Shown here one piece after another: positions 8,304 to 45,465 of a DNA stretch of 64,000 bases. Where the stretch lies: NCBI GenBank assembly GCA_002099625.1, contig GCA_002099625.1_4857.1; one strand, 5' to 3'. This stretch comes from Escherichia coli (GTDB taxonomy: Bacteria > Pseudomonadota > Gammaproteobacteria > Enterobacterales > Enterobacteriaceae). The notes beneath the pieces were generated by a model. That model was given only the letters and a program-made list of their open reading frames with translations, did no database searches and was not told where the DNA came from. The position numbers and the translations under genes were made by a program. The stretch's first letter is position 1. The number at the start of each line of letters is the position of its first letter.

Positions 8304-8422
8304 CTGCGATGAAAGCGAGTAACGAAGAATTGCGTTTGTGTTTTCTTAAGTTTACCGGTAAAGCTTAGCGGTGTATACCGCTGCAGGTAAAGACCAGTTC
8401 TCTATCGGAACCGTGTCTTTAA

Positions 8423-9133: not shown

Positions 9134-9220
9134 GGAATGCCCATCCTTTCGTGCGGATAATCCAACCCCAGGCACCACGAATCAACCACAGTGCGATACC
9201 GGTTAGTACGATACCTTCAA

Positions 9221-9412
9221 TCATGTCCGTTCCCCTATATCTCGCCACTCACAACGCGTGTCAAAAAGACGTTCTTTAAGAGCAGAGGCTAAATACACAA
9301 CCGCAGCGATAACCACCACGGTTGCACAAAAGGAGAGGTACAGCACCATCACAACAAACTGAAGGAACTGAAAACCCCACCAAGCCCATAAGCGCCAACC
9401 TTTATGATGCAT
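9221..9412 (-). CDS. small membrane protein (63 aa)
   Basis: ATG start overlapping 3' end of upstream ATPase gene; hydrophobic core FVVMVLYLSFCATVVVIAAVVYLA. Confidence 0.45.
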   Translation of the reverse strand: MHHKGWRLWAWWGFQFLQFVVMVLYLSFCATVVVIAAVVYLASALKERLFDTRCEWRDIGERT

Positions 9413-30092: not shown

Positions 30093-33000
30093 ATGCCGAG
30101 AGAAGATGCGGCGCAGTTTAACGGTACCCTCAGTACCGCTACTTACCCGAACCGTTATTCGACGGTCATTCCCGTCGAAGCACCGTTCTATCGCATCGGG
30201 TTAACGTTAACCGTTACCGATAAAACAACCGGAACCAAACGCAAGTTAATAGAAGGTCTTGATTATTTCTTAGGACATTACTTCCAGGAATTAGCCGAGG
30301 CTGAGAACGATGCAATATACGGCAGCATAATGCTGCTGAACGCCACAGAGGTAGAATACGAGTTGTTGTCGGTTGGTCGACAGTATCGCATCCCTGCTTC
30401 TGAAATCGGCAAGTATCTGGTTAAGACGGATATGAAAGACCCACGCAACTGCGATTGGTCTGAGCTGATGAAATATCCGCCGATTATCTCGCCAATCGAC
30501 CCGCCAAAAGATCTCGAAGAAGCCATCCTTCGCGATGAGATTGTAAAGGCGCTGGAAGATATCCGACTGGGCATTTTAGAACGTGCCCACGAACTGGATG
30601 AGGCTTTTGCCGAAGTTACCGATTTGATTTATCAGAACGGTAAAAAGGTGTTTGATGACGAAATGTATCAACACCATCTGATTAAAAATGCACATGGTTA
30701 CACCTGTGGCGATATCGGTGCACTCCCTGTGCTCGGTAAGGCCGTGGATGCGACTAAGGCGTTTGGACGTACACTGGCAGAGTTAGTGACGCTAATGTCT
30801 ACCAGCGGTATCCAACAGAAACATGTTGACATGCTTCTGGATAATACCCTGGGTGATTTACTGGGCCGTATGCGTGTTCTGAATAACGACGCGATTACGT
30901 TCCAAACAACGTCTGGCCACGTTATCAGCATGAAGGGTGAGAAGTTCATCATCACCTCGACAAAACCGCTGGTATTAAAAGCTGACCAGGATAACAACGA
31001 ACCGGGTATCGCTACGGAGTTCAGTGCTGGTCTGAACACGCTTTGGGTTCACTCGGGTAAAGCAGGTGACAAGTGGGGCGCTTATGATGCAGGTGTGCTT
31101 GCTCCTGTGTATAACAGCGTCTATCTCGTTACACCGGATATGGTTAAGATGTACTTGACCTCGGTGAAGATACTTCCAGCAAACGCCTACTTCAAGTCCA
31201 GCGACACGTTGAAGATTTACGGCTCTGGTAAAGAAACAAACAAAGTTTACATGAATGCGGAACTGCCTGCAGCAACCACAACTGTGCAGGGCTTGTTTGC
31301 GATTACTAACCTTTCGGCGTCCGCTGCAGCGTCCACAGCGATTTCCCAAAAAGCTGTTACTGACTTGAAGAACAAACTAGACGGATATGTGGACGACACG
31401 TATACGGTCAATGGTAAAGGGTTTGTGTTAGACGAAAACGGTCAAATGCATTTAACATTAACCGCGTCGGATTTCGGTATTGAGAAGATGAACAATACCG
31501 GACCGCTGGAGAAACCGGTTACTAATGCGTTGCGCACCGTGCTATCAGGCAAGGCACTCTCAACACACACCCACACCATTGCTGATCTCGATAACGTGCC
31601 GTACGCATCCACGTCTGTTACAGGTTTGGCTAAACTGTGGGATGCTATTGACACCACAACAGATAAGATGGTTACTGCCCGCCAGGGTTTCTTGCTCGAA
31701 CAGAAAATCGGTACACTGAATGACAAGATTGCTACGTTGTTGCCGGCATGGACCGTTGGCGGATCATCGTACGGCAACAATAACTTCTTGCCTATACCTG
31801 TCCAGGGGAACTACGAAGGGTACACCAAAAACCAAACTTGGCAAAAAGGACTGGCGCGTTACGAGGCTGGTAAGGTTTACTCGTTGCGTAATGGTTCCAA
31901 CGGGAACCCGCCAGGTGACTGGGCTATCTATTACGCCTATGCTGATGTGTCGCCAAGCAATACGCTGGAAAATATGCAGCAGACGTCCGTACGTTATCAC
32001 CCCGCTGGAATGTCGGCGTATCCTGGGGTGAATCTGGTTGCTATTCTGATTACCGGTACAGATGCAATGATCTGCTTAGGCAGTGACTATGCGTATTATC
32101 TGGTCATCTTTGACGGCACCATTGACCATGCAAAACATCATCGCGTTGTTAAAGTTTACTTGGGCGATTACCGAAATGGTAACGCGGCCGGTGTGATTAC
32201 AACCACACCATGGGTTGCCGATCCATCAACAAACGATTTGATCGTTTGCAACGATCGGGTTTATCTACTCCGCACTGTCCTTACCTCCGGTGACTATTTC
32301 GTGAGTATGCGTAGCATCGCACTCAACGAACTTAATCTGGGTGGTAGCAACACGTTTGTGGCGGATGTGTTAACAGGTGGGATGTTAACGTCGGGAGATA
32401 ATATCTACTTGCGTCAGGGTCAGAAACGTTCTGATACAGATGTGTTGGTAGCGCCAGTAACACAAATCTACGCAGATGCATCGGCGAAGTGGAATAGTGC
32501 GCGAAATTTCGTCCATGGTCCGGAATGTAATCACGCGATTGCTGTGGATGGGCTGAACTTTCGTGTTGGTTTAACGCCAACAGTCTGGTTTGCTTCTACT
32601 ACAGGGCAAACTATTAACTTTAAACAATGGGTGTCAAGCTTTGTTGTTGATTGCAGTTCAATGACGGTAACGCTGGAAGGTGCCGATCGATTCCCTATCG
32701 TGGCCGATCTTACCACGGTCCGTTATAACGGCGGGGCTGAGATTGGGATTCCGAGCCGGAAGTGGGGCGAAGGTCAAGCTAATAACCGAACCTTTGCAAC
32801 ATCGCAAGACAAGTATATTGTTTCGCAAGGACATGCAGGCGATCGCGACCTAATGCCTTATGTCACGATTACAACGTTAGATGACGGTGTGAGTTGGTAC
32901 GAGTACCTGTCGTGTGACTACAACTTCACTGCCAGAAGTTTTAGTGCGGTAATGTTAAACCAAGGTCGTGGTTCTATCTACGAGCTGGGTATGGCGTATC

Positions 33001-35276
33001 CGCTGACTCTGGGAGCGAATTCCAGACTTATCTGGTTGTCACAACCGCGTTCCCGTTTGGCAATTGAAGTTGAGTTTGATCCGAACACCACTTACTCAGG
33101 TAAGGCGGGGTATGGCCCAACTAACAATCGTCGTGTAGTAGATTCTATCACGTATGAGAATCTGTCGCAGATGTGCCACATTGTTACACCGGCGTCGCCT
33201 GGTACAGAGTTAAACGGCTGGTATTGCACAGGACCAGAAACATTCCCTTACCACAACGTTTCCGGCACTTTCACGATTCATGCCGATCGATTGACGCTGT
33301 CACAAGCTGAATGGGATAAGATGAAGCAGATGATCATCGACGGAGCACCGGCAGGCGCTGCGAATGGTTATGCTTCGGAATTTATCCTTGCTGCAAATAA
33401 CGCAGGAAAGGCATTGTTTTCCGTTTGGTTCATCGGCATCGGAACGGCCACACCGCTCACATTAGCACAAGTAGCATGTACACGTACTGTGAACAATGTT
33501 AACTTGTTAGATATCTACTACTTTACACTGAAACCAACAATCAGCAACGGGCAGGTAACATTCCCCGCAGCGATATTGGCACTGTTTGACTTCTATAACA
33601 ACCTCGACTATGGCTTGAACTATGCTACGTTGGGAGAGATAACGGGAGGAAAAACACGCCGGCCGGGACAACCTACCATGGTGTCGGTAGATGGTACGCA
33701 GTTCGGGTTGTATCTTCCACACACGTTAACCTTGCGCCAGATTGGCGACTTGGGTGCGCTTAACTACGCTGCTGGTCTTACGCTGTCTAATGGTACCTGG
33801 ACGCGTTCTTCTGCACCACACGGCGTTGGACGTATGGCACCGTCACACACTCCAGTCAGCCCAGCTTATCTGGCTCATCGTGATCAGGTGATGCTACACA
33901 ACTCATCTCTCGACTACGTCTATTGTGGTGGTATCGCAATGTCGTCGAGTGATTTTGTTGCACGTCCGAGTTTCGGTGGGGCGACTGAGACTGTTGTTAT
34001 CGCCGGTGTGGAAACAGCCGAAGGTTGGCTGGTATATGTGACTGAGGAAGTTAACCTGCGTTTCGGCTCGAGCACTTATAAGCTGCCTACGTGGTATATT
34101 GACCTCAGCGCAGCGTTTCCAACAAACCATCAGAACCGGACATTCTACCTGCACGCTAAGGTAGAAAATGGTACACCGAAGTACGTAATGGACGTGGTTC
34201 AACATCCAGACACTGAAACGGAACTCTACATCGGGTATGTTAAAACGGGCTCGTCGCGAGTCGTCGAGACTAACGTCGACCATGCTAAGCGATTGGGGGC
34301 GGTAAAACAGCTGTTGGAACACGCGGCGGTTGAGAATAAGCATGATGTGGAAGTGGGAAGGGATGCAGCAACGGGCAGACTGGCACCATTGCGTAAAGAA
34401 GCGATGGGTCCTTTGTCAGTCGATGCTACGAAAGGCTATCTGGATAGTCAGTTGCTTTATACCGTATCTGACGCACAGCGTCGCGGTAAAGCGATGGTGT
34501 CCAAACGTTTCGAAGGCTTGAAAACTTTGCCGGCGTTTACTCAGGCAAACAAGTCGGGGGCGTTTTGGAAACATCCTACAACAATCGCGACGGTAACGGC
34601 CGACGAGAACAGTGAAGCGACATCGTTGGGTATGGAGTGGGTAGGTATTCCAACGCCCGCTTTCGCTCCGACTTCAACAAACTTGATGGTGGTGGTGCAA
34701 AGTAAATTCGTCGTCCCAGGTACACTGGGAGTAGAAACGACCTTTAATGTCCACGTTGCCCCATGGGAGGCGGTGGATGGCTTTTTCTACAACGTCGAGG
34801 CGGAAGGTACGGATGTTAACATTGACGAAAATCCAGAAGTGTTATTGCCGTCACCACATACCGTGCACCACAAACAGCACTCTCTGCCAGCAGGCGTGCC
34901 GTGCACCTTTACATTTGTCGCGGCGGTAAGTTCTTCAGCGCTCGAAACAGCTAACCAGCATATTTGCTCTTGGCTTTTCACGGACGCTGGGGGTCTACCA
35001 ATCACCACCGATCTTTCGGATAGTAAGATTCAAATCTTACCACAGTCGGGAGAGACCAACGGCACACCAGTTGTTCTGAACAGTCGTAGCTACACGTTTA
35101 CGAATGTGACAGGTGCAATCCCGGTTGTTACCACGGGCGCTCAGGGTTTATTCCCACCACCGATCGTGGCGTGGGATGGCGATGATCTTACGTTAACGAT
35201 TGCGCACGATTGGGTGAACGAGAGAGGACGTCAACAGCCTGATATTATCCAGGTCAATCTTATGTTCCGTACCTAA
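30093..35276 (+). CDS. tail fibre protein 3 (1727 aa from Met16 of track ORF 30048..35276)
   Basis: GGAGTG RBS 6 nt before internal ATG; motifs HTHTIADLDNVPYASTSVTGLAKLW and PAATTTVQGLFAIT. Confidence 0.8.
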   Translation: MPREDAAQFNGTLSTATYPNRYSTVIPVEAPFYRIGLTLTVTDKTTGTKRKLIEGLDYFLGHYFQELAEAENDAIYGSIMLLNATEVEYELLSVGRQYRIPASEIGKYLVKTDMKDPRNCDWSELMKYPPIISPIDPPKDLEEAILRDEIVKALEDIRLGILERAHELDEAFAEVTDLIYQNGKKVFDDEMYQHHLIKNAHGYTCGDIGALPVLGKAVDATKAFGRTLAELVTLMSTSGIQQKHVDMLLDNTLGDLLGRMRVLNNDAITFQTTSGHVISMKGEKFIITSTKPLVLKADQDNNEPGIATEFSAGLNTLWVHSGKAGDKWGAYDAGVLAPVYNSVYLVTPDMVKMYLTSVKILPANAYFKSSDTLKIYGSGKETNKVYMNAELPAATTTVQGLFAITNLSASAAASTAISQKAVTDLKNKLDGYVDDTYTVNGKGFVLDENGQMHLTLTASDFGIEKMNNTGPLEKPVTNALRTVLSGKALSTHTHTIADLDNVPYASTSVTGLAKLWDAIDTTTDKMVTARQGFLLEQKIGTLNDKIATLLPAWTVGGSSYGNNNFLPIPVQGNYEGYTKNQTWQKGLARYEAGKVYSLRNGSNGNPPGDWAIYYAYADVSPSNTLENMQQTSVRYHPAGMSAYPGVNLVAILITGTDAMICLGSDYAYYLVIFDGTIDHAKHHRVVKVYLGDYRNGNAAGVITTTPWVADPSTNDLIVCNDRVYLLRTVLTSGDYFVSMRSIALNELNLGGSNTFVADVLTGGMLTSGDNIYLRQGQKRSDTDVLVAPVTQIYADASAKWNSARNFVHGPECNHAIAVDGLNFRVGLTPTVWFASTTGQTINFKQWVSSFVVDCSSMTVTLEGADRFPIVADLTTVRYNGGAEIGIPSRKWGEGQANNRTFATSQDKYIVSQGHAGDRDLMPYVTITTLDDGVSWYEYLSCDYNFTARSFSAVMLNQGRGSIYELGMAYPLTLGANSRLIWLSQPRSRLAIEVEFDPNTTYSGKAGYGPTNNRRVVDSITYENLSQMCHIVTPASPGTELNGWYCTGPETFPYHNVSGTFTIHADRLTLSQAEWDKMKQMIIDGAPAGAANGYASEFILAANNAGKALFSVWFIGIGTATPLTLAQVACTRTVNNVNLLDIYYFTLKPTISNGQVTFPAAILALFDFYNNLDYGLNYATLGEITGGKTRRPGQPTMVSVDGTQFGLYLPHTLTLRQIGDLGALNYAAGLTLSNGTWTRSSAPHGVGRMAPSHTPVSPAYLAHRDQVMLHNSSLDYVYCGGIAMSSSDFVARPSFGGATETVVIAGVETAEGWLVYVTEEVNLRFGSSTYKLPTWYIDLSAAFPTNHQNRTFYLHAKVENGTPKYVMDVVQHPDTETELYIGYVKTGSSRVVETNVDHAKRLGAVKQLLEHAAVENKHDVEVGRDAATGRLAPLRKEAMGPLSVDATKGYLDSQLLYTVSDAQRRGKAMVSKRFEGLKTLPAFTQANKSGAFWKHPTTIATVTADENSEATSLGMEWVGIPTPAFAPTSTNLMVVVQSKFVVPGTLGVETTFNVHVAPWEAVDGFFYNVEAEGTDVNIDENPEVLLPSPHTVHHKQHSLPAGVPCTFTFVAAVSSSALETANQHICSWLFTDAGGLPITTDLSDSKIQILPQSGETNGTPVVLNSRSYTFTNVTGAIPVVTTGAQGLFPPPIVAWDGDDLTLTIAHDWVNERGRQQPDIIQVNLMFRT

Positions 35277-35323
35277 CAGATAGCGCTATGGGGCAAGGAA
35301 GCCCCAATCAAAGGAGTTTGGCA

Positions 35324-36526
35324 ATGGCCGAAATCATTTATCAGTACCCGCTTGACCTTACCGGGACATTAACGTCGAACGCCGTTACGCGGCGTATTAC
35401 GTTAGGTTCTGGTAAAGTTAACCGGGCTTTTGCATTTCCTGACGGAGCTTTCTACGCGGATACCTTCCGCTTGGCGGCTGCGAATAAACCAGGTGTCTAC
35501 CCGTACAAACGCGGCACAGACTACGAACTGATTTTTGCACATACTGCATATCAGAAAATGACCAAGAACCGCGAAGTGGTCATGGGTGTGGTGGTAACTA
35601 ACTCGGCCATTCCTACTGATATCGAAGTCTCTGCGCAAGTCGTTGGTGGTTTTCAGTCCGCGAACGTCGAAGGTATCCGACAAGCGATTGCGTCGTTGAA
35701 AATTGAAGACCGTGTGGTGGACTTCAAGGATCTTCGAAACGTACCTGATACGTTCCCATCCGCCCCGACGTATAAAGACCTTGGCGATATCTACGGTTTT
35801 GAGTATATCATTACCGTACTCGCTGGGATTAAAGATGCGATTAACTCCGGCTCTGCAGTACAGCTGGAAGAAATCAAAGGTATTCTGGACGGTCTGAAAA
35901 ACGACTTCCTCGATGCCTTAAATGCCCACGTCAACGCCGAAGGTAACGTACACAATCTCGACATTCATCAGGTTAATGGCCTGACGGAGACGGAGATTCG
36001 TGCTCTGATTCAAAGTGTACAGACTGCCATTGACGCCACTATCAAAGATATCGGCGACTTAAGAGCAGCAGACACGGCGTTGGGACAACGCATCGATGCA
36101 GTTGTGGCTTCGTTAGCCGCGTGGAACGACCAGCTTAATGTAGTTGCTCAAAATTACCAGAAAATGTCGTTAGCATTAGCTAACCTTAATTCTCTGGTGT
36201 TGCAATTACAGAAGAAGGTTAACGATCTTCAGTCTGCGCTGAATGAAACAAATCAGCGTGTCACGGATCTTGAGAATCAGGGCAAAGACTTCCAACAGCA
36301 AATTGATAACCTGCAAGGACAAATCAACAGTCTTAAAACTCAGGTTGTAAACAACACCAACGCAATTTCGCAGGCAAACCAGAATCTGGCGAACCATGCG
36401 GCTGCGGATAACCCACACCCGAATTACCTCCATAAACAGTATGGCGGTGTTGTGCAGGCTGCTGTTCACGTCAACAACAACCTCACCTCGCGCGACGATG
36501 TTCAAGCTGAAGCGGGTACTAAGTAA
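35324..36526 (+). CDS. tail-fibre-associated coiled-coil protein (400 aa from Met13)
   Basis: AAGGAG RBS 7 nt before internal ATG; N-terminus resembles those of the three large fibre genes (RGTDYELIF...); long Q/N-rich coiled coil. Confidence 0.7.
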   Translation: MAEIIYQYPLDLTGTLTSNAVTRRITLGSGKVNRAFAFPDGAFYADTFRLAAANKPGVYPYKRGTDYELIFAHTAYQKMTKNREVVMGVVVTNSAIPTDIEVSAQVVGGFQSANVEGIRQAIASLKIEDRVVDFKDLRNVPDTFPSAPTYKDLGDIYGFEYIITVLAGIKDAINSGSAVQLEEIKGILDGLKNDFLDALNAHVNAEGNVHNLDIHQVNGLTETEIRALIQSVQTAIDATIKDIGDLRAADTALGQRIDAVVASLAAWNDQLNVVAQNYQKMSLALANLNSLVLQLQKKVNDLQSALNETNQRVTDLENQGKDFQQQIDNLQGQINSLKTQVVNNTNAISQANQNLANHAAADNPHPNYLHKQYGGVVQAAVHVNNNLTSRDDVQAEAGTK

Positions 36527-36539
36527 CTTGTTTACGAGC

Positions 36540-36580
36540 CGGACTATGTTTATGGACATAGTCCGCTCGTTCTACTTTTT
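36540..36580 (+). terminator. rho-independent terminator/attenuator (approx coords)
   Basis: 9-bp stem CGGACTATG/CATAGTCCG, 8-nt loop, then CTACTTTTTAA; lies between fibre operon and first Cys-rich peptide gene. Confidence 0.5.
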
Positions 36581-36591
36581 AAGGAAGCGTA

Positions 36592-36984
36592 ATGGCGATA
36601 TCTATTAAAGACGTCAGAAACCGCGTCCAGATAGTCGAAGCTAACATGGCGACAGGCCCCCGTATCGACGCGCAAGTGGCCTCTAAAGCCCATAATGCGG
36701 CAGACCGATTTGGGGGTTGGACGAAAGCACAGCTAGATTGCGGCGGGACATGTTCTTGGACGTGCTCTAACGGTTGCTCGCATGGCTGTTCGAGCTGTTC
36801 AGGAAGCTGTTCTGCTTCTTGTATCGGTAGCTGTTCTTCGACGTGTGGCGGTAACTGTTCTGGTTGCTCTGGTTGTTCTGGTGGTTGCAGTAGTAGCTGT
36901 ACCGGTAACTGTTCAGGTGGTTGCGGCGGCTCTTGTTCCGCAAACTGCTCCGGGGCCTGCTCCGGCGGCTGTTCAGGTCGCTAA
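36592..36984 (+). CDS. Cys/Ser/Gly-rich precursor-like peptide P1 (130 aa): ~50-aa leader-like N-terminus plus 21-Cys repeat core
   Basis: AAGGAAG RBS; N-terminus MAISIKDVRNRVQIVEAN...; core DCGGTCSWTCSNGCSHGCSSCSGSC... with Cys every 3-4 residues; ends CSANCSGACSGGCSG. Confidence 0.65.
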   Translation: MAISIKDVRNRVQIVEANMATGPRIDAQVASKAHNAADRFGGWTKAQLDCGGTCSWTCSNGCSHGCSSCSGSCSASCIGSCSSTCGGNCSGCSGCSGGCSSSCTGNCSGGCGGSCSANCSGACSGGCSGR

Positions 36985-36994
36985 GGGGGATTAA

Positions 36995-37399
36995 ATGGCA
37001 ATTGGATTAAAAGAACTGAATAACCGATTAAACACGATCGATGCAAACGCTTTAAAGAACACCACGAATGTGCAAAACTACATTCGCAATAAAGCTACGA
37101 ATAACGCCGACTTGTTCGCAGGTCAAGGCCGTTCGCACTATGACTGTGGCGGCACATGCTCTTTTAGTTGCTCGAGTTGTTCTGGCGGGTGTACTGGGTC
37201 CGCTACGGGTGGTTGTGGGTCGACTTGTTCCGCAAACTGTGTATCGGGCTGTAGCAGCAGCTGTACGGGCTGTAGCTCTTCGTGCTCGGGTGGTTGTAGC
37301 GGCACGTGCACAGGCAGCTGTTCTGGGGGTTGTGGTAAATCCTGCTCCGCAAACTGCTCAGGTGCGTGCTCTGGTGGTTGTTCAGGTCCTAACTCCTAA
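36995..37399 (+). CDS. Cys/Ser/Gly-rich precursor-like peptide P2 (134 aa)
   Basis: RBS AAGGGGG; N-terminus MAIGLKELNNRLNTIDAN... paralogous to P1; core about 21 Cys; same C-terminal CSANCSGACSGGCSG block. Confidence 0.65.
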   Translation: MAIGLKELNNRLNTIDANALKNTTNVQNYIRNKATNNADLFAGQGRSHYDCGGTCSFSCSSCSGGCTGSATGGCGSTCSANCVSGCSSSCTGCSSSCSGGCSGTCTGSCSGGCGKSCSANCSGACSGGCSGPNS

Positions 37400-37414
37400 C
37401 TGACGGAGGCTTAT

Positions 37415-37621
37415 GTGATCAGTCTCAAGGCTATTCGAAACCGTCTCGTTACGGCAGAAGGTTACATTACAACCGCACAGGCAAACAACTATATCGCTAA
37501 CCAGGGCACCGTGTCAACCACGAACAACCTGGCTGGTTTACCGCTTTCCCACTATAACTGTAATGGTGGGTGTAGCTGGTCCTGCAGCGGAAGCTGTAGC
37601 CGTGGAGCGGGGAATCGATAA
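37415..37621 (+). CDS. short precursor-like peptide P3 (68 aa, 4 Cys), probable GTG start
   Basis: RBS ACGGAGG; N-terminus (M)ISLKAIRNRLVTAEG shares leader motif with P1/P2; core NCNGGCSWSCSGSCS. Confidence 0.5.
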   Translation: MISLKAIRNRLVTAEGYITTAQANNYIANQGTVSTTNNLAGLPLSHYNCNGGCSWSCSGSCSRGAGNR

Positions 37622-37643
37622 CAGAAAACGTTCGGAGTATTAA

Positions 37644-38531
37644 ATGAAAAACGATTTGCATCTTGCGTATAAAACCACATTCAACCACCCGCTGCATCTA
37701 TCTTCCCCAGACTCGGTGCGTGCACACCTCGCTGACAAAGTCAGACTGATTGCACAGATTCCTGGTGAGTGGCCAAAGGTTCGTGGTCGCTTCTTGACCG
37801 ACAAGAAGAACTACACCGTAGAAAATACGTTTAAGATCCGTGATATGGTTGCAGAGGCCATCGTTATCTTTAACGGCGATGGTAACTCTCGCGGCGTGTT
37901 AGTCGACGGTAAGTATTTCTTCAGTGAAGGGATTTTGAACAACAGCGTCGATTTAGAACTGATGTTTACACCGTTTGACGAACTTGAAGCAAAACCGATG
38001 GCGCGCCGTTGGTGGAGTCCGGACTATCTGGGCTCGTTCCCTTACTACTTTGTACTGGTACCTGCCGATACGGAAACGTATTTCGACACCGAACCATACA
38101 TCGATATCGAGGGGTATAAAGAACTCGGCATCACCCGTTTAGCGGACATGATGGCGTATAGCTATAAGTTCGTGTGGGATAAAAAGCGTTCTGTCTGGTA
38201 TGCGCTGACTGACGATTTTGAAATCACCAAGCGTATTCGTAAGCCGTGGATGCAACACCTGGTTCAAACTCGATATGGGGATTACCCGGCGACAGAAGCG
38301 GATTTGAGTAAGCTGGTAAGTTTCCTCTTAACGAAGGTGGATTTAACGAAAGAAGAAGCAGAAGCTGTTTCTGAGATTCGTGGTCGTTCGGTAACGTTGG
38401 CCGATTTGAAACGTCTGAACGAAAGACACGCCGACCTGAACAAAATTTTAGCTGCCTATCACGACCCGATGTTACTGGTGCCTGGCGCTAACGTAGACGA
38501 AGATCCTTTATTCGCCATTGATTATATTTAA
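37644..38531 (+). CDS. hypothetical protein (295 aa) in peptide/rSAM operon
   Basis: ORF with RBS, between peptide genes and rSAM genes; no motif recognised. Confidence 0.65.
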   Translation: MKNDLHLAYKTTFNHPLHLSSPDSVRAHLADKVRLIAQIPGEWPKVRGRFLTDKKNYTVENTFKIRDMVAEAIVIFNGDGNSRGVLVDGKYFFSEGILNNSVDLELMFTPFDELEAKPMARRWWSPDYLGSFPYYFVLVPADTETYFDTEPYIDIEGYKELGITRLADMMAYSYKFVWDKKRSVWYALTDDFEITKRIRKPWMQHLVQTRYGDYPATEADLSKLVSFLLTKVDLTKEEAEAVSEIRGRSVTLADLKRLNERHADLNKILAAYHDPMLLVPGANVDEDPLFAIDYI

Positions 38532-38553
38532 AAATATACTGGAGCAACCTGCA

Positions 38554-39468
38554 ATGACAGATCAAGTAGAATCCAGGATCTCGTCTGAACTGTACGACAA
38601 ACCGTCAATTCTGTCGGTTGTCGCAACTTCTAAGTGTAACTTAGACTGTAGCTTCTGTGGAGGGGCTTATTACATGGATAGAGAAGATACTTCTCGTGAG
38701 TTTCAACGTGAAGAGATTCTCTCGATTTTAGAGAAGAATCCGGATATCGGTGAGATTCATTGGACGGGCGGTGAGCCGCTGTTAGCGCAGCGTAAGATTG
38801 AAGACTTCGTGAACGAGTTGAAGGAGTCTCATCCGAACCTCCGTCATCACATGTACACCAACGGTTTAAAGATGCGTAAATCACATCTGCCGTTGCTGAA
38901 ACAGTTCGACCTTATCTTTGTGTCCATTGACGGCTACAAGAAGTCGGAACGTCCGTTTATGAACTTTGTAAACGGTGGTAATCACGAAGCGCTGGAAGTG
39001 CTGTACGAGCTGGACAATTATTACACCTGGGGTGTGATGACGCGTGACCAGTTAGGCGATAAACGCTGGTACGAAGATTTCATCGAGCTGCACCGAGCAA
39101 TCTATCATTACCGTCCAGGTGGTGTGTCGTTGTTGTTTGATGCGATGATGCCGAAACCGTTATCGCCAGACCACGTCATGAACTTCATGTACGGGTATTG
39201 GAAAATACTCGACAATATCGAACGCCTTAACATGCAGAACGACTCTGAATGTGGGCTTGCGATCAGTAAAATGTTCGATACCGAGTGCAACACGTGCAGT
39301 GAAGTGCTGTGGCTTAACGCCGACGGTACGCAGGAGCAAATTCAGAACGCCCCAGAGATATTGGAAGTCGGCTGTAATCGCCTGGCGCGTTCTATCGGCG
39401 TTGATGCGTATAACTACATCAACCGTGTAATTTCTGCTAAGCGTAAACGGGCGGCGAACAATGAGTAA
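38554..39468 (+). CDS. radical SAM enzyme 1 (304 aa from Met13)
   Basis: CNLDCSFCGG (C-x3-C-x2-C) near N-terminus; WTGGEPLL glycine-rich SAM motif; additional C-terminal Cys (C-x12-C-x2-C...C) suggesting an auxiliary cluster. Confidence 0.75.
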   Translation: MTDQVESRISSELYDKPSILSVVATSKCNLDCSFCGGAYYMDREDTSREFQREEILSILEKNPDIGEIHWTGGEPLLAQRKIEDFVNELKESHPNLRHHMYTNGLKMRKSHLPLLKQFDLIFVSIDGYKKSERPFMNFVNGGNHEALEVLYELDNYYTWGVMTRDQLGDKRWYEDFIELHRAIYHYRPGGVSLLFDAMMPKPLSPDHVMNFMYGYWKILDNIERLNMQNDSECGLAISKMFDTECNTCSEVLWLNADGTQEQIQNAPEILEVGCNRLARSIGVDAYNYINRVISAKRKRAANNE

Positions 39469-40789
39469 TAGCGAACAGCAAATCCAGTACACACCACGCA
39501 CGTATCAGGTTGTGACTAACCTGTCATGTAACCTGGACTGCGAATACTGCTACGAGCGTAAATATCCGCGTAACAACAAAGTAGCAGACGTGATTGATTT
39601 TATCCACGCTTGTTTCGAGCGTGATAAAGATATCCCGAACGTTGAAGTCATCATCGATATCATCGGTGGTGAGCCGTTCATGCAGCCTAAACTTCTTTTG
39701 GCGGCCTTTGAAACCGCAGAGAAGTTATGCGCAGAACACAATCGCCCGTATATGTTCAGTATCTCCACGAACGGTACGCTTCTGGACCGTCCGCTGAACA
39801 AAGAAATTATCGAGCGCTGGAAAGACAAACTGTCTATTGGGGTCTCCATCGATGGTTTACCTGAAGTCCATGACAAATATCGTATCTTTACCACGACGCG
39901 TGAAGGGTCGTACGAAGCTGCGGTACGCGGTTACAATTATCTGAAGAGTGTTGGCATCGCTGAACTGGGCGTAAAAGCGACGTTTACGATCGATACATTG
40001 CCGCACTATGCCGCCAGCATGAAATCGTTAATTGACATGTCCGGCGGTGGTACCATTTCTGGTAATGTAACGTACGAAGATATCCTGCCGCGCCATATGG
40101 CGTTGGATATCGCGAACCAGATGATGGACGTGATGGACTACTGGATTGAGAAGGGTCTGCACACCAACCCGCGTAACACGATTACACACATCATCCCGGA
40201 TGGCCTGAACTTTATGGCAACTTGGGACCCGGATTGGCGTGACAAACTCTTGCACGACGACTCTGTTCGTCTCGACCCAGAACGCCTGAAACCGTACTGC
40301 GGTACGTTGACGCACATGACCTGTCTCGGCTTTGATCGCAAGATTTACGGTTGTAACCGTTTCATGTCCACGGTAACTTCCCGCTCTGCTGTAGCGGAAC
40401 TGGTCGGTCGTGAGTTTGTGAGTCTGGACGGTGGTAAGCTGTTAGAAGAGATTCAAACGCAGTACACCAACTACCCAGAAACCTGTTTAGGGTGTCCGAT
40501 GAAGCACAGCTGCGGTAGCTGCGCAGCAGCATCGTACGAAAACGGTGAAGGTACACTGGAAGACCGTAAAGCGTATCACGCCGAGCGTCGTCAGTGTGGT
40601 TGGACTACTGCGAAGCTGATGGCGGCGGAATATTGGTATCAAAAAACTGGTACGACTCGCGCATCAGATTTGCACGATAAATCCATGTGCTATTGTTCAC
40701 GTTGTGTACGCCAACGTGCCGAAGCAGAAAAATTACAAAACGGAGCCCAGAATGAAGTCAATACTGATTCACAATTTTACGAAGCGTAA
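39461..40789 (+). CDS. radical SAM enzyme 2 with SPASM-like C-terminal domain (442 aa)
   Basis: CNLDCEYC (C-x3-C-x2-C); IIGGEPF; C-terminal Cys cluster CGTLTHMTC...C...CLGCPMKHSCGSC typical of SPASM/twitch; start overlaps rSAM1 stop by 8 nt. Confidence 0.8.
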   Translation: MSNSEQQIQYTPRTYQVVTNLSCNLDCEYCYERKYPRNNKVADVIDFIHACFERDKDIPNVEVIIDIIGGEPFMQPKLLLAAFETAEKLCAEHNRPYMFSISTNGTLLDRPLNKEIIERWKDKLSIGVSIDGLPEVHDKYRIFTTTREGSYEAAVRGYNYLKSVGIAELGVKATFTIDTLPHYAASMKSLIDMSGGGTISGNVTYEDILPRHMALDIANQMMDVMDYWIEKGLHTNPRNTITHIIPDGLNFMATWDPDWRDKLLHDDSVRLDPERLKPYCGTLTHMTCLGFDRKIYGCNRFMSTVTSRSAVAELVGREFVSLDGGKLLEEIQTQYTNYPETCLGCPMKHSCGSCAAASYENGEGTLEDRKAYHAERRQCGWTTAKLMAAEYWYQKTGTTRASDLHDKSMCYCSRCVRQRAEAEKLQNGAQNEVNTDSQFYEA

Positions 40790-41318
40790 ACTGCACTTGG
40801 TCGATCGCTTCCTGCGCAAAAGCAAGCTGTACAATGTGCACGCAATTGTGGCAGGGGAAGACTTCACTGATGAAATCCAAAGCCTGTTGATTAAATACGG
40901 GCTGAATGTGATGATCCCGGTCTACTGCGTTGAGAAAGGACACGAGTCTGTCGCGGAAATCGAAAAGCGCAACCCTGGCTTTGAGAAGCGACTGCTTGCA
41001 TACCCACGCCACAAAATCGAACTGCTACGTCACTCTATTGATGAAGCCAGTCCTGAAAGTTTAGTGGCATTGGGCTTGTCATTCCCGCGGATGCGTATTC
41101 GTAACTTACGCTCCAATAACCCGGTTGACGCTTATTACACAGAACGTCAAATCTTCGAAGAACACCTGCTCCCGCAGTTGGAAGAAGAAGAGCAACACAA
41201 CATTTCTCTGTTGTGGGCCGGTAACCTCGATCAGGACTTCCAGATGCTGGACTTCGGTTTGTTGTTAGAACTTGGCCTGATTGAGGAGGACGAATGTCTG
41301 TTACTGACAAAAGCTTAA
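40752..41318 (+). CDS. hypothetical protein (188 aa from Met17)
   Basis: ACGGAG RBS before internal ATG; overlaps rSAM2 3' end. Confidence 0.55.
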   Translation: MKSILIHNFTKRKLHLVDRFLRKSKLYNVHAIVAGEDFTDEIQSLLIKYGLNVMIPVYCVEKGHESVAEIEKRNPGFEKRLLAYPRHKIELLRHSIDEASPESLVALGLSFPRMRIRNLRSNNPVDAYYTERQIFEEHLLPQLEEEEQHNISLLWAGNLDQDFQMLDFGLLLELGLIEEDECLLLTKA

Positions 41319-41965
41319 CGAACGAAGAGATCCGCGCCCGTTATTTCCAGCGCGATTTGCCGATTGATCGTCACGGTAATTTCATGGAACGAATCGGTGC
41401 GCAGGATCAGGGTCGTACTGGATTTTGTGCATTACTCCATTACCATCTCATCGAAGGGATGTCTGATAAAGAAGCCCTGGCACGCATGAAGCTGTATGAG
41501 ATGTCGGAGATTGAAGCTAACTTCACATTGAAACGCACGAAAGAGTTTATTGCTAATGTGCTGGAGATTGACCTCGACGAAATTCGCGGGAATCTGAAAT
41601 CTACCGCACGTTACATTTACGAAGACGTGCAGAAGATGCTGTTGGAACTTGACCATCGCTACGAAGATGAGCGCCATGGTTATATCGAGTTTGAAGGTAG
41701 CCACTTTCAAGCCGATGAATCGTCGCGTACCATCCTCGGTCAATATATTCAGGCGGATACCGCACCAGAATACTGGCTCGATACGCTGAATACTAAGCAC
41801 AGTCCGTTTACAGTAGACCAATGTAAAGCGTTGTTGGCCGCTATTGTTGCACGTGACCAAGTGTTGCACTCAGCAATGGCAGATAACAAACGCCAAATCC
41901 GTGAGTTGGCTGAAAAGCGCGATTACACTGGATTAAAAACATTGTCCGAATCTCTCGGCATGTAA
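41294..41965 (+). CDS. hypothetical protein (223 aa), last gene of operon
   Basis: GAGGAGGA RBS; followed by strong terminator. Confidence 0.6.
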   Translation: MSVTDKSLTNEEIRARYFQRDLPIDRHGNFMERIGAQDQGRTGFCALLHYHLIEGMSDKEALARMKLYEMSEIEANFTLKRTKEFIANVLEIDLDEIRGNLKSTARYIYEDVQKMLLELDHRYEDERHGYIEFEGSHFQADESSRTILGQYIQADTAPEYWLDTLNTKHSPFTVDQCKALLAAIVARDQVLHSAMADNKRQIRELAEKRDYTGLKTLSESLGM

Positions 41966-41967
41966 GC

Positions 41968-42024
41968 AAAGAAAATAAAGGCCCTACCTCCCCGAAGGGA
42001 GGTAGGTACCTTTTATTTATTTCT
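41968..42024. terminator. bidirectional rho-independent terminator (approx coords)
   Basis: 10-bp stem CCTACCTCCC/GGGAGGTAGG, GAA loop, A-run before and TTTTATTTATTT after. Confidence 0.7.
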
Positions 42025-42697: not shown

Positions 42698-43189
42698 ATG
42701 AAACGTCTATTTATCGTATTCGCGATTATAAACCTGTTGGCCGGTTGTGTTCAGTCGCCAAGCAACATAGGACAATTTAGCGCCACACCAGTAAAGAATC
42801 ACGACTTGGTGATTTATACATGCACAGGGACGCAGGAGAAGTTTATAGACTACCGTCCGGTTCTGGACAATCTACAGATGATGCCGCGGTCAGTAACAGT
42901 AATGGATGTGGGTGCAAACTGGGTAGCAACGTGGGACGGTGGCAAACTTGAGTCACCGATGATGTTTAAAGATGTGGTTGGCAAAATCGACGGGAATGTT
43001 AACACCACCACGGGCGAGCGTTATTACCGTATTAATAAAACAGCAAACGATAGCCCAACTTATTCTTTTTCGGATGTGAACCCACATACCGGGGAAGGTA
43101 AAGGGATGACATTCTTTCGCTGCAGCGCCGGCTTTATCGACGAAGTTCCTACGCCGATTATGATTGTTCCGTTAGAAGAAAATAAATAA
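42698..43189 (+). CDS. lipoprotein (163 aa)
   Basis: MKRLFIVFAIINLLAGC lipobox LAGC; isolated plus-strand gene with own terminator. Confidence 0.65.
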   Translation: MKRLFIVFAIINLLAGCVQSPSNIGQFSATPVKNHDLVIYTCTGTQEKFIDYRPVLDNLQMMPRSVTVMDVGANWVATWDGGKLESPMMFKDVVGKIDGNVNTTTGERYYRINKTANDSPTYSFSDVNPHTGEGKGMTFFRCSAGFIDEVPTPIMIVPLEENK

Positions 43190-43314: not shown

Positions 43315-43830
43315 TTAGATTTTAACTAGCTTGCTCCAATCGATGGGTTGTTGTTTAACCACTTTAACGGTACCACGTGTCGGTGACCAGAAAGTGATAT
43401 CAGGCTGGTTGCGTACGTCAACATGCAGCCAGGTAATATCGCACTCGATAAAGTGAATAAACGGAAACTCGTTAGGGTTCGCGGCAATATAGTCGTGTAC
43501 TTTCTGCAACGGAGTATCAAGCATTGTTGCATCAAACGCATTGCCGAATTTATGCATACTGCCTGATTCCGCGTACAGTTTGTTTGCACGAGTTTGCCAA
43601 TCGCCACCCTTTGGTTTCTCTTGATTAATAAAGAACTGCAGGGTACGCAGACTACGCTGTTGCTGGGAACTGGTTAAAATCACCATCCGCCCAAAACGAT
43701 TACGAATCTGTTGGAGCGAGATTAGCAGTAACGGATTAAGGAAACGAATAGCACCTTCACCGTATTTCGCGATGTACTCCTGCGGCATCAACTCTTTTAA
43801 CGCGAAGTTGGCAGGATTCGGATGAAACAT
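43315..43830 (-). CDS. LAS-type zinc peptidase (peptidase M15-like; candidate endolysin L-alanyl-D-glutamate peptidase)
   Basis: SMHKFGNAFDA matches S-x-H-x-x-G-x-A-x-D zinc-binding block; downstream LHVDVR (H-x-D); AAGGAG RBS. Confidence 0.6.
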   Translation of the reverse strand: MFHPNPANFALKELMPQEYIAKYGEGAIRFLNPLLLISLQQIRNRFGRMVILTSSQQQRSLRTLQFFINQEKPKGGDWQTRANKLYAESGSMHKFGNAFDATMLDTPLQKVHDYIAANPNEFPFIHFIECDITWLHVDVRNQPDITFWSPTRGTVKVVKQQPIDWSKLVKI

Positions 43831-43839
43831 TTTCTCTCC

Positions 43840-44481
43840 TTAAGGGGTAGTCAGGAACGCACGTTTGATATTCAAATACTGCACGTTTACCGGTTGCCCA
43901 TTAGTAATGTCAACACGTTCGTGTTCAGGAATCGCTAACGTACGCGACGTTCTAAAGAACAGGTAGTTGCGATTATAGGACAACGTCTTTTCTACCGGCC
44001 GGCTATAAACCACCTTAGAGTTATCGTCTACATAGGACGGCCAACCAAACTCGTGAACGGCATGGTAGAAGGACTTACGAATAAAGGTATCAACGCCTAA
44101 TGCCTCCATGATACGTAAGAACATCAGGTCAGCGAATGTTTTGTCACATGCACGAGATAGATTACCTTCGACAGTGTCAGGGTAAAAGCCTACCGATGAA
44201 CGTTTCTGGTAAAACAAATCATGCACACAAGCGGCAGCGGCCCAAGGCCCATCCGGATGCAGGATAGGACGTAACGCTTCTGGAATGCTTGCCAGGTCCG
44301 TCACAAATCCTCTCGGTACCGTTACCCATAACGGGGTATCCGGATGCACACCTGCTAATGCTACCATCGCATCCATTCCGGTCTGTTCACGATAGAGGCT
44401 GCGCAACGTAAACTCGAAATGGAAATCATCCGTGAGGATAAACCACGGCTTCTCTAACAACTTATACTCAAGTGCTTCCAT
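43840..44481 (-). CDS. hypothetical protein, DUF1353-like (213 aa)
   Basis: Motif PRGFVTDLASIP...HDLFY reminiscent of DUF1353 phage proteins; GTGAGG RBS. Confidence 0.5.
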   Translation of the reverse strand: MEALEYKLLEKPWFILTDDFHFEFTLRSLYREQTGMDAMVALAGVHPDTPLWVTVPRGFVTDLASIPEALRPILHPDGPWAAAACVHDLFYQKRSSVGFYPDTVEGNLSRACDKTFADLMFLRIMEALGVDTFIRKSFYHAVHEFGWPSYVDDNSKVVYSRPVEKTLSYNRNYLFFRTSRTLAIPEHERVDITNGQPVNVQYLNIKRAFLTTP

Positions 44482-44488
44482 ACTGACC

Positions 44489-44581
44489 TCACGTCATATA
44501 ACGCACGAGCATCGTGAGGACCATTAATCCCAGTAAAATGGGCATTAAGCCTTTCGGCCAGTCGTCGTTGTCGTATTGCAT
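44489..44581 (-). CDS. possible small TM peptide (30 aa; approx coords)
   Basis: GGAGGG RBS 7 nt before ATG; MQYDNDDWPKGLMPILLGLMVLTMLVRYMT has one hydrophobic helix; below ORF-track size cutoff. Confidence 0.25.
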   Translation of the reverse strand: MQYDNDDWPKGLMPILLGLMVLTMLVRYMT

Positions 44582-44697
44582 GGCTTTACCCTCCGACAGA
44601 AGATCGCGCGTAATAGTTTGAAGAACCCAGAATCGTAATACGTTTCCGGAACGGTTTGTACTTCGGGGAACTTAGGCGGAGTTGGACGGTGGGTCAT
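44545..44697 (-). CDS. possible small protein (50 aa; approx coords)
   Basis: AAGGAG RBS 8 nt before ATG; overlaps neighbouring small ORFs out of frame. Confidence 0.2.
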   Translation of the reverse strand: MTHRPTPPKFPEVQTVPETYYDSGFFKLLRAIFCRRVKPCNTTTTTGRKA

Positions 44698-44773
44698 TAC
44701 GTTTTCTCCTTGCGGCAAAAACAAGGGCGCGCCAGATAGCTTTCATTAAGGCAGCAAACCAATTCTGTTTCAT
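44672..44773 (-). CDS. possible small basic/amphipathic peptide (33 aa; approx coords)
   Basis: ATG overlaps the lysozyme-gene stop (ATGA); MKQNWFAALMKAIWRALVFAARRKR. Confidence 0.2.
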   Translation of the reverse strand: MKQNWFAALMKAIWRALVFAARRKRNDPPSNSA

Positions 44774-45387
44774 TTGCACACCCCCAACTTAGCCACGTAG
44801 TCTGGCATTTCATGATAGACGCGGCCATACCAGCCGTAAGTAAACTCTTCGTTATCCTCACGCCCTTCACTGATTTCCGTGTAATACGCAACCTGATGAC
44901 AGGTTAAAGCGAACATCAGTCGATTCAGGCCCTCTTCCCCACGGGCTTTGATGAAGCCTTCTAACGCTGTTAACGTACGTGGCCCGATACCACCATCGGC
45001 ATCGATATCATCGTATAGTTTACCCTGACGGTTTAATACGTTCAGAATACGTTGCAGGGACTTGATACAGTTACCGCGTCCTGCGTTAATGCCGAAATCA
45101 AACATTCGGTCAGCTAGCAGGACATTCATTTTCATAATCTGGTCTAAACGCATTCGCTGCCACCAGAGCTTGTTGTAAATGTCTAACGCGATTTCTAAGC
45201 TCAGGTCACGCATATCCCCTTTATAGCCATATTCGCGCGCAGTGAGTTCGGTGACACCGCGGTTCGTTGCTTTGCCCAAATCTTTCGGGTTATTAACGTA
45301 ACCGGCTTCGATGTTTACTTTGGCACGAATAATGCCCTCTTTACTCCAACGATCGACCACGATAACCTCCTGAGTTGATAGGGTCAT
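44770..45387 (-). CDS. GH108-like lysozyme with C-terminal PG_binding_3-like domain (206 aa from Met13; candidate endolysin)
   Basis: EAGYVNNPKDLGKATNRGVTELT resembles the GH108 E-G-G-Y-V-N-D-P-x-D-x-G-G-x-T block; DADGGIGPRTLTAL resembles the D-G-x-x-G-P-x-T PG-binding motif; track start lies inside terminator hairpin, Met13 follows it. Confidence 0.65.
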   Translation of the reverse strand: MTLSTQEVIVVDRWSKEGIIRAKVNIEAGYVNNPKDLGKATNRGVTELTAREYGYKGDMRDLSLEIALDIYNKLWWQRMRLDQIMKMNVLLADRMFDFGINAGRGNCIKSLQRILNVLNRQGKLYDDIDADGGIGPRTLTALEGFIKARGEEGLNRLMFALTCHQVAYYTEISEGREDNEEFTYGWYGRVYHEMPDYVAKLGVCK

Positions 45388-45389
45388 AA

Positions 45390-45420
45390 AAAGAAAGCCT
45401 CTTCCCCACAGGGAAGAGGG
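45390..45420 (-). terminator. rho-independent terminator (approx coords)
   Basis: Stem CCTCTTCCC/GGGAAGAGG, loop CACA, T-rich tail on minus strand. Confidence 0.5.
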
Positions 45421-45465
45421 CATGGGTTATCTTCAGGCTTTAAACCCGTCAAGTTCCTCGTTAAA

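Follow-up and report, generated by a model that had tools for sequence, protein, structure and literature searches.

The window analyzed here is a stretch of 64,000 nucleotides from an Escherichia coli assembly (GCA_002099625.1, contig GCA_002099625.1_4857.1). Its positions 36592–41965 contain a block of eight genes, all on the plus strand, which encode three small Cys-rich proteins (P1, P2, and P3), a 295-residue protein, two radical S-adenosylmethionine (rSAM) enzymes (rSAM-A and rSAM-B), and proteins similar to gp162 and gp161 of phage SPN3US. Bases 36500–42000 were matched by 26 complete jumbo-phage genomes, each over more than 80% of the length, and the closest genomes were those of Salmonella phage 1252 (98.9% identity) and SPN3US (98.2%), genus Seoulvirus. 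In the SPN3US numbering, the block is the gp167-to-gp161 stretch, with gp167 located just upstream.

A preliminary description of the window had proposed an operon coupled by ribosome binding sites (RBSs), in which three consecutive small genes for Cys/Ser/Gly-rich peptides are directly followed by two radical SAM enzymes. The three open reading frames (ORFs), which are paralogous and have 130, 134, and 68 residues, are present on the plus strand, in a Cys frame that is under selection. The gene order is co-directional, Shine-Dalgarno-like sequences lie upstream of P1, P2, P3, and the gene of the 295-residue protein, and the enzyme genes have overlaps of 8, 38, and 25 nucleotides. The enzymes belong to the same co-directional block as the small genes, but they do not follow them directly because the gene of the 295-residue protein intervenes. 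The features are listed in Table 1.

Table 1. Genes of the module and adjoining features, in window coordinates
Feature	Position	Strand	Remarks
P1	36592–36984	+	130 aa, 21 Cys in C-X-X-X tract; phrog_6085 (5e-40)
P2	36995–37399	+	134-aa paralog of P1, 20 Cys; phrog_6085 (3e-41)
P3	37415–37621	+	68-aa short paralog, GTG start, 4 Cys; phrog_6085 (3e-24)
gp165-like accessory protein	37644–38531	+	295 aa; phrog_8030; core member of type I modules
rSAM-A (SPN3US gp164)	38554–39468 (ORF from 38518)	+	Pfam Radical_SAM (1e-15)
rSAM-B (SPN3US gp163)	39461–40789	+	442 aa; 100% identical to SPN3US gp163
gp162-like protein	40752–41318	+	188 aa; phrog_7988; no Pfam or NCBIfam match
gp161-like protein	41294–41965	+	223 aa, DUF4376; PF14301 (2.4e-9); phrog_2837 "tail protein" (4e-4)
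gp168 homolog	30093–35276	+	Giant baseplate/tail-fiber protein; ORF maps to SPN3US_0168
gp167 homolog	35288–36526	+	"Virion structural protein 20"; ORF maps to SPN3US gp167
Stem-loop between gp167 and P1	36534–36570	+	U-rich stretch 3'; minimum free energy −23.7 kcal/mol, z = −4.5
Bidirectional intrinsic-terminator-like hairpin closing the block	41983–42006		10-bp GC-rich stem, T runs on both strands

P1 shares 54% sequence identity with P2 and 33% with P3. The three proteins have in common an N-terminus of about 49 residues, which ends in a junction motif, N-[A/N/D]-x-x-[L/F]-x-G-x(4-5)-[H/Y]-[Y]-x-C-x(2,3)-C-S-[W/F]-[S/T]-C (short form, NA..L.G....[YH]Y.C..CSW[ST]C), that is also found in all members of the type I modules described below. 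In P1 and P2, the core is a series of C-[S/T/G]-[G/S/A]-[G/S/T/N] units and consists almost entirely of Ser, Cys, and Gly; exact four-residue C-X-X-X units make up 18 of 21 in P1 and 16 of 20 in P2. The P1 core holds 24 Ser, 21 Cys, and 21 Gly among its 81 residues. The Cys contents of P1 (15.8%) and P2 (14.9%) are the two highest of the 109 window ORFs of at least 100 residues, for which the median is 1.7%. P3 has the same N-terminus and junction motif as P1 and P2 but only 4 Cys, and its relatives contain 2–4.

The low-complexity DNA leaves several frames open at P1–P3, and the published annotations disagree; therefore, the frame was checked by a cross-phage comparison. The same three ORFs, in the Cys frame and with near-equal lengths, are found in the phages Machina, CR5, Wellington, and Phobos, whose enzymes are 63–77% identical to those of the window. 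Across the five phages, which represent four genera, P1 keeps all 21 of its Cys columns unchanged and P2 keeps 20 of 21, and both TGT and TGC are used in 18 columns of P1 and 17 of P2. By this comparison, the Cys frame is the one that codes for protein, with selection acting on every Cys. Alternative frames are open just sporadically across the phages. DNA-level tandem repeats are weak, and the periodicity is kept at the protein level.

Published annotations of the region depart from the Cys frame in several places. The SPN3US annotation (JN641803, positions 8001–9145 of our locus L001) lacks P1 and P3. Its gp166 was called in another frame, as an Ala/Val-rich 111-residue ORF over P2 (window positions 37068–37403), and its gp164 (rSAM-A) was annotated from an internal Met, which removes the CX3CX2C motif. 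In the annotations of CR5 and Phobos, minus-strand ORFs lie over P1 and P2. Both the "gp166" ORF and the minus-strand ORFs were ruled out as the coding frame by conservation. The exact P2 sequence is absent from a collection of 5.8 billion proteins.

The N-termini of P1–P3 are hydrophilic. Helices were predicted, with low confidence, at residues 5–19 and 23–35; as to fiber domains or repeats, P1–P3 themselves show only these two helices and the junction motif. A comparison of the N-termini, as possible attachment domains, with the other window proteins gave no matches, and P1–P3 had no match in the local Pfam copy. The NCBIfam model TIGR04114 (CXXX radical-SAM target repeat) scored P1, P2, and P3 with 18.4, 17.1, and 13.7 bits (cutoff, 20). 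The Pfam family PF27846 (tSAM_targ_Cxxx_rpt) has been precomputed on long phage homologs, including a 568-residue protein (L008), protein P0119, and others.

Both enzymes score above the Pfam Radical_SAM threshold. The ORF of rSAM-A opens at TTG 38518, and its likely start is ATG 38554, which is preceded by GGAG. The enzyme has the motifs CNLDCSFC and GGEP, with the CX3CX2C motif formed by Cys40, Cys44, and Cys47 (numbered from TTG 38518), and three conserved C-terminal Cys of a twitch-like kind. HxsC is the top NCBIfam family for two distant homologs of rSAM-A and the third-best for the window protein, and the matches of rSAM-A to known families are confined to the N-terminal core. A QueE/NrdG-type assignment of rSAM-A is unlikely.

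rSAM-B has the motifs CNLDCEYC (Cys23, Cys27, and Cys30) and GGEP. Eight auxiliary-cluster Cys (280, 288, 298, 342, 345, 351, 354, and 379) are retained in all nine diverse homologs compared, down to approximately 32% identity, with the SPASM spacing C-x7-C-x9-C, then C-x2-C-x5-C-x2-C, and then C. rSAM-B is a full SPASM maturase with two predicted auxiliary Fe-S clusters; the preliminary description had noted a SPASM/twitch-like C-terminal Cys cluster in the second enzyme. The leading NCBIfam families of rSAM-B are TIGR04115 (radical SAM peptide maturase, CXXX-repeat target family; 3e-36) and the ranthipeptide maturase PapB (1e-32), and the nearest solved structures by sequence are CteB (SCIFF maturase, 5wgg) and then anSME. 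Distant phage homologs of rSAM-B score 132–157 bits against TIGR04115, which is the best or second-best family for rSAM-B and all its phage relatives, with near-full alignment of the 359-position model. All of these scores fall far short of the curated cutoffs, so that rSAM-B is classified from its sequence as a relative of the TIGR04115 family, in a sister clade, and of the PapB family, and not as a member of either.

A cofactor or nucleotide role of the QueE, NrdG, or MoaA type was considered for rSAM-B and rejected; the lead of the peptide-maturase families exceeds 10 orders of magnitude. An assignment of the enzymes to nucleotide or cofactor families was what the preliminary description had named as a possible refutation. 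Its view that a Cys-rich substrate is combined with rSAM/SPASM enzymes of the RiPP-maturase kind (RiPP, ribosomally synthesized peptide with post-translational modifications) agrees with the matches to TIGR04115, PapB, and CteB and with the weak TIGR04114 scores of the small proteins.

Tail-fiber homologs and linkage of the enzymes with CXXX proteins

A profile built from P1, P2, and their relatives was compared with 1.84 billion representative proteins and gave 279 matches at E ≤ 1e-3. The junction motif is present in approximately 43 of the best 150 matches, and nearly all of the tracts end 2–13 residues before the C-terminus. The motif-bearing matches differ widely in the length of their N-terminal extension, which has a median of about 142 residues and extremes of 36 and more than 400. 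Outside the SPN3US-type proteins, the motif lies 100–460 residues into tail-fiber proteins, immediately before a C-terminal CXXX tract; the motif and the tract together form the C-terminus of 200–570-residue proteins in siphovirus, podovirus, and myovirus contigs, always with the same enzymes adjoining. These long homologs carry tail-collar fiber N-termini (PF12571), HxHD.RYYTE repeats, collagen-like repeats, and coiled coils. The family of P1–P3, phrog_6085, was matched by 31 of the 32 long members, and all others with a function name among the 25 most-matched PHROG families listed are tail fiber, collar, spike, or tail proteins.

The distant homologs of rSAM-B (25–39% identity) are phage-borne, and the genes around them form a very uniform picture. 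The module lies behind a GpJ-like tail-tip protein in L007 (a Deferribacter prophage) and in L010 (a metagenomic relative), where the Cys-repeat proteins (302 and 258 residues, respectively) have HxHD.RYYTE.E fiber repeats and then a stretch with NADQLGGQAGSYYRCSDCSWTCSSSCTGSC that runs on to the C-terminus. The 568-residue PF27846 protein of L008, a 213-kb T4-like contig, adjoins a T4 gp13-like neck gene, and a 271-residue CXXX protein in L011 has a PF12571 tail-collar-fiber N-terminus and a coiled coil. The module follows genes for Dit, a Tal-like protein, and a 796-residue PHROG head/virion structural protein in siphophage contigs of about 58 kb (L050). In T7-like podophage contigs (L093 and L094), it follows a T7 tail-fiber N-terminal adaptor and a collagen-like mini-fiber; in the L093-type module, the CXXX protein occupies the place of a receptor-binding protein behind the adaptor. 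The module of the window is directly downstream of the baseplate/fiber proteins gp167–gp170.

The linkage of the enzyme with CXXX ORFs was quantified in IMG/VR. A scan with the rSAM-B alignment found at least 489 relatives, and the best 80 loci were counted. A CXXX ORF was defined by a C-X(2,3) run of at least six Cys within 7 kb of the enzyme gene. Such an ORF was found in 77 of the 80 loci, upstream of the enzyme gene in 72 and downstream in five. The CXXX ORFs are nearly always on the same strand as the enzyme, encode 40–574 residues, and contain up to 103 Cys. Of the three exceptions, one is at a contig end, and the other two (L032 and L033) are apparently the same sequence. In L033, a 279-kb jumbo-phage contig, a 97-residue protein encoded at the expected target position (5883–6176) has three C-terminal Cys and ends in CESCAMGCHGPQ. 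It resembles the P3 proteins with 2–4 Cys, which suggests that a very short motif is enough for recognition. The association of CXXX proteins with the enzyme is close to obligate in the viral loci.

Hidden Markov models built from the module families divided the 80 loci into two types. In type I, which includes the SPN3US clade, the CXXX protein, the gp165-like protein, rSAM-A, and rSAM-B co-occur (22 of 22 loci). In type II (58 loci), rSAM-B is present without rSAM-A and the gp165-like protein, and the N-terminal domain of the target differs. Many of the type II loci (L035–L092, e.g. L050 4971–6578 and L074 2932–4434) came from a single metagenome, 3300045988. Their targets have 100–570 residues, up to 103 Cys, an N-terminal domain of about 110 residues, and the entry motif S-S-C-R-G-A-C-[ST]-G-L-C. 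In the podophage contig L093, rSAM-A and rSAM-B are fused in one protein of 668 residues (positions 7330–9336), with an A-type domain at residues 13–220 and a B-type domain at 298–664.

Two side observations concern these loci. The CXXX protein of L093 and the adjacent collagen-like mini-fiber have their N-terminal ~60 residues in common. In L010, a siphophage-type locus, three consecutive radical SAM genes (274, 301, and 377 residues; positions 4306–7134) follow the CXXX fiber protein, and a Cys-rich protein of the thrombospondin type (TSP1_ADAMTS) is encoded downstream.

Accessory proteins and gene neighborhood

A confident structure model of the gp165-like protein matched neither a PqqD-like fold nor another known fold, and the protein had no NCBIfam match of any kind. 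The RiPP recognition element (RRE) that the preliminary description had suggested looking for in the 295-residue protein and the downstream proteins was not found; no PqqD-like element, fused or stand-alone, was detected in the module, and rSAM-B begins at its CX3CX2C motif. Searches of the eight module proteins in Pfam, NCBIfam, and PHROGs gave no peptidase or transporter family, and no immunity gene, double-glycine-type site, or signal peptide was found in the module.

The gp162-like protein is present in Machina, CR5, Wellington, and Phobos and is confined to the SPN3US-like clade; neither the CXXX proteins that were checked nor the distant loci, as judged from their gene lists, showed a homolog. 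The DUF4376 domain of the gp161-like protein occurs in phage tail proteins, and a DUF4376 protein is also encoded beside the CXXX gene in another locus (L012). In the report on the SPN3US virion (PMC5694885), the main text places gp161 in the head "paralog family B", while the abundance statement and the tables name gp160. This mismatch is probably a numbering slip, and we gave no weight to the head assignment of gp161.

Upstream of the module, gp168, gp169, and gp170 are giant baseplate/tail-fiber candidates that were detected in virions, and gp168 is described as a virion tail/baseplate-fiber protein (PMC5105663, PMC5694885). gp167 was also seen in SPN3US virions (supplementary tables of PMC5694885). 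The gp167 homolog of the window has a long coiled coil at approximately residues 216–373 and an HxH-type C-terminal motif, and its Pfam matches are to coiled coils only. A possible terminator, attenuator, or RNA-stability element is formed by the stem-loop between gp167 and P1. Machina, CR5, Wellington, and Phobos also have a hairpin in this place, with a sequence of its own, and the element may cause gp167 and the block behind it to be expressed at different levels.

The module had been described as lying between tail-fiber genes. The upstream side stands, with the homologs of gp167–gp170 as baseplate/fiber candidates, but the downstream side does not: beyond gp161, on the other strand or past the bidirectional terminator, are the gene of gp160, which is a virion protein with DUF7941, a lipoprotein-like ORF, and genes of the lysis type. 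The lipoprotein-like ORF, gp159 (163 residues, 42698–43189, plus strand), begins with MKRLFIVFAIINLLAGC, which by inspection resembles the signal peptide of a lipoprotein, lipobox included. This ORF had no family match and is situated between the virion and lysis-type genes. A cell-wall-related cluster on the minus strand (43315–45423) encodes a weakly Peptidase_M15-like protein (171 residues), a DUF1353 protein (213 residues), and an endolysin-type protein with GH108 and PG_binding_3 domains (217 residues).

The region was also matched in the SPN3US-like genomes of SPFM1, SPFM5, SPFM9, and SPFM15 (LR535901, LR535903, LR535907, and LR535913), as about 40 short pieces with 44% coverage and 99.4–99.7% identity. 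Some SPFM proteins of the block align to the window proteins across just 6–32% of their length. This fragmentation suggests many indel errors in the assemblies and not a true divergence.

Proposed role of the CXXX proteins

We infer that the CXXX tract is the substrate of rSAM-B because of the near-obligate linkage, the invariance of the Cys, the fusion of rSAM-A and rSAM-B, and the enzyme family. By analogy with the characterized relatives (PapB, CteB, and QhpD), the modification would be the formation of thioethers between Cys sulfur and carbon atoms. Two findings argue for a product that belongs to the host-recognition apparatus, namely, the position in the tail modules of four kinds of phages and the presence of fiber domains in the long members. 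For P1–P3, we put the chance at about even that they are rSAM-crosslinked (probably thioether-crosslinked) proteins associated with the tail fiber and not classical leader-core precursors; they would be miniature members of a family that in other phages makes up the distal end of tail-fiber or receptor-binding proteins. The wider proposal is a widespread class of phage virion proteins, in which phage rSAM/SPASM enzymes would crosslink the (Cys-X-X-X)n C-termini of fibers or fiber tips, with thioethers or other radical-derived bonds as the rungs of a ladder; we advance it tentatively, as falling just short of an even chance. Among the options in the preliminary description, the results favor "thioether-crosslinked virion or fibre components". 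Its leader-core precursor picture is not favored; the N-terminus of about 49 residues ends in the fiber junction motif, and the framing as a RiPP precursor with a leader should be replaced for P1–P3.

In the proposed mechanism, P1–P3 would be made late in infection together with the maturation set of the gp165-like protein, rSAM-A, and rSAM-B. The 5'-deoxyadenosyl radical chemistry of rSAM-B would link the Cys thiols to carbons of nearby Ser, Thr, and Gly. The floppy Gly/Ser-rich tail would thereby become a ladder of small rings that is independent of the redox state of the cytoplasm. The twitch-like rSAM-A may introduce a second kind or a second set of modifications, and the gp165-like protein may act as a substrate-presenting or assembly partner instead of an RRE. 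The matured proteins, which would be rigid and resistant to proteases and reductants, would enter the baseplate/fiber apparatus beside gp167–gp170. As a speculation, the three short SPN3US-type proteins may attach near gp167–gp170 via their predicted helical N-termini. A structural role makes sense because such crosslinks, unlike disulfides, can be formed in the reducing cytoplasm, where the virions assemble.

Several points weigh against this proposal. The scores of rSAM-B are far from the trusted cutoffs (125.6 of 350 bits for TIGR04115 and 113.6 of 340 bits for PapB), and the chemistry could differ. Acceptor residues of the ranthipeptide kind (Asp, Thr, and others) are just partly present in P1–P3. 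The AlphaFold model of P2 has a mean confidence score (pLDDT) of 42 and is uninformative. P1–P3 are short (68–134 residues), lack a recognizable attachment domain, and resemble neither gp167 nor gp168, and they may have a peptide-like role in the SPN3US clade. The virion tables of SPN3US list gp160 and gp167–171 but none of gp161–166 (PMC5694885), and we infer both the modification of P1–P3 and their placement in the virion. The absence of gp161–165 from the tables fits non-structural maturation factors. For P1–P3, mass spectrometry of the virion was uninformative because the database searched either left the proteins out or had them in a wrong frame and their cores are nearly without tryptic sites. 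A "split fiber" origin was also considered and found no support: gp167, the gp168 C-terminus, gp160, gp161, and gp162 gave no matches when compared with the N-termini of the long CXXX fibers.

P1–P3 could alternatively be a genuine phage RiPP, with a leader of about 49 residues and a Cys-rich core that is freed at lysis as an antibacterial, anti-defense, or signaling peptide. The small size of P1–P3, the conservation of their N-terminus within the SPN3US clade, and the location of gp161–gp165 outside the virion, which is expected of biosynthetic enzymes, are consistent with this explanation; in addition, the relatives of the maturase (PapB, CteB, and TIGR04115) otherwise act on RiPP precursors, and bacterial CXXX peptides with secretion-type leaders exist. 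However, the junction motif and the tract end large tail-fiber proteins in three morphotypes with the same enzymes adjoining, the module is always located within tail modules, and a leader peptidase, a transporter, an immunity gene, an RRE, and a double-glycine-type site were all absent from the searches of the module. We regard a released peptide as improbable. An explanation that we consider unlikely, too, if a little less so, concerns the chemistry. The CXXX tract may be a metal-binding, Fe-S-binding, or disulfide domain, like the HxH fiber sites or a C-terminal intramolecular chaperone, and the rSAM enzymes would then catalyze another reaction; candidates are the conversion of Cys or Ser to formylglycine (anSME), epimerization, and C–C or C–O crosslinks with the conserved Trp. 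The invariance of every Cys, which is expected if each is chemically used, the lack of the anSME-type C/S-X-P/A-X-R motif in the tract, and the fact that the top characterized relatives (PapB, CteB/SCIFF, and QhpD) all form Cys-to-carbon thioethers argue against such reactions. They have to be set against the presence of anSME among the solved relatives of both enzymes, the scores below the cutoffs of the thioether-forming families, and the CSW motif, which has an invariant Trp/Phe, is the most conserved part, and is kept in P3 variants with two Cys. HxH fiber repeats just upstream of the tract in L007 and L010 are in line with a metal site.

As a third alternative, the small ORFs could be non-functional remnants or mis-called low-complexity sequences, with the rSAM enzymes acting on a host or phage substrate encoded elsewhere; several published annotations omit P1–P3 or use other frames or strands, gene callers rarely report them, and the 5.8 billion proteins do not include the exact P2. 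Purifying selection on the Cys frame is strong across four genera, however, the RBSs are present, the trio of lengths is conserved, and the enzymes co-occur with CXXX genes in 77–78 of the 80 loci. We give this explanation hardly any credence, and selection together with co-occurrence comes close to refuting it.

If the proposed crosslinking is correct, viruses use radical SAM peptide chemistry to harden or shape their host-recognition apparatus, and RiPP-type chemistry builds a structural, receptor-facing part of a virus and not a secreted natural product. RiPP enzymology and phage structural biology, which previously did not overlap here, would meet in a system with at least 489 viral examples in IMG/VR, from siphophages, podophages, myophages, and jumbo phages, and with very long and regular substrates, which makes it attractive both to enzymologists and to engineers of hyperstable peptide rods. 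The proposal would also account for two genes conserved in SPN3US-like phages and labeled "radical SAM superfamily", for which no role had been proposed, and would add three missing genes to the model phage SPN3US, which is genetically tractable and has an amber-mutant collection and deep proteomics. In phage-therapy candidates of this clade (against Salmonella, E. coli, Erwinia, and Cronobacter), the host range and the particle stability may hinge on an oxygen-sensitive maturation.

Comparison with known systems

In the literature searched, we found no description of a phage CXXX/rSAM system or of a virion protein modified by dedicated radical SAM enzymes; the prior traces are the NCBIfam and Pfam models. 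The closest system is the CXXX-repeat target system defined by these models (TIGR04114/TIGR04117, TIGR04115, and PF27846), in which Ser/Gly/Thr-rich C-X-X-X repeats likewise occur beside an rSAM/SPASM maturase. The bacterial peptides have an SRREFFKKAAK leader that looks by inspection like a twin-arginine translocation (Tat) signal, and the searched literature held no experimental characterization of the bacterial system, which is known from family models. In contrast, the phage targets lack a leader of the bacterial secretion type and have the fiber junction motif, often with a large fiber N-terminus, instead. The type I phage modules add a second rSAM enzyme and the gp165-like protein.

The maturases PapB (freyrasin) and CteB (SCIFF) have the same architecture as rSAM-B, with an rSAM core and a SPASM domain with two auxiliary clusters, and rSAM-B was aligned over positions 12–319 of the 330 in the PapB model. 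In freyrasin, C-X3-D motifs carry the Asp acceptors, and the P1–P3 substrates lack such Asp. The substrates of PapB and CteB are likewise Cys-rich with regularly spaced Cys, but they have about six Cys, whereas the phage substrates have at least 20 per chain and up to approximately 570 residues. Genes for leader removal or export were not found at the phage module. PapB forms thioether macrocycles (PMC12373016). Another comparison, and a precedent for rSAM thioethers in a protein that is kept in an assembly, is QhpD, an rSAM/SPASM enzyme that introduces several intra-protein Cys-to-carbon thioethers into the small protein QhpC, which stays on as a structural subunit of something larger (PMC7876137). 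The phage rSAM-B family has one of its better matches in TIGR03906, the QhpD family (2e-25), and a conserved Cys/Trp pair is found in both QhpC and the phage substrate. The similarity to QhpD/QhpC is a functional analogy; the phage module has no QhpC-like sequence, QhpE protease, QhpG, or periplasmic enzyme context.

The His-Xaa-Ser repeat system (HxsB/HxsC) has the same four-gene logic of a repeat target, a SPASM rSAM enzyme, a shorter rSAM enzyme, and an uncharacterized fourth protein. rSAM-B matches HxsB at 5e-21 to 3e-27, far below the cutoffs, and the phage repeat is CXXX and not HXS. Phage particles are reinforced by other means, such as the autocatalytic isopeptide bonds of the HK97 capsid and the HxH metal sites of T4-type fibers. 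The presumed purpose would be alike, namely, to stiffen and stabilize a part of the virion that is exposed and whose assembly takes place in the reducing cytoplasm. These reinforcements are autocatalytic or metal-dependent, whereas the phage CXXX module would need dedicated radical SAM enzymes. The module would be a phage structural variant of a system that was earlier defined only through family models.

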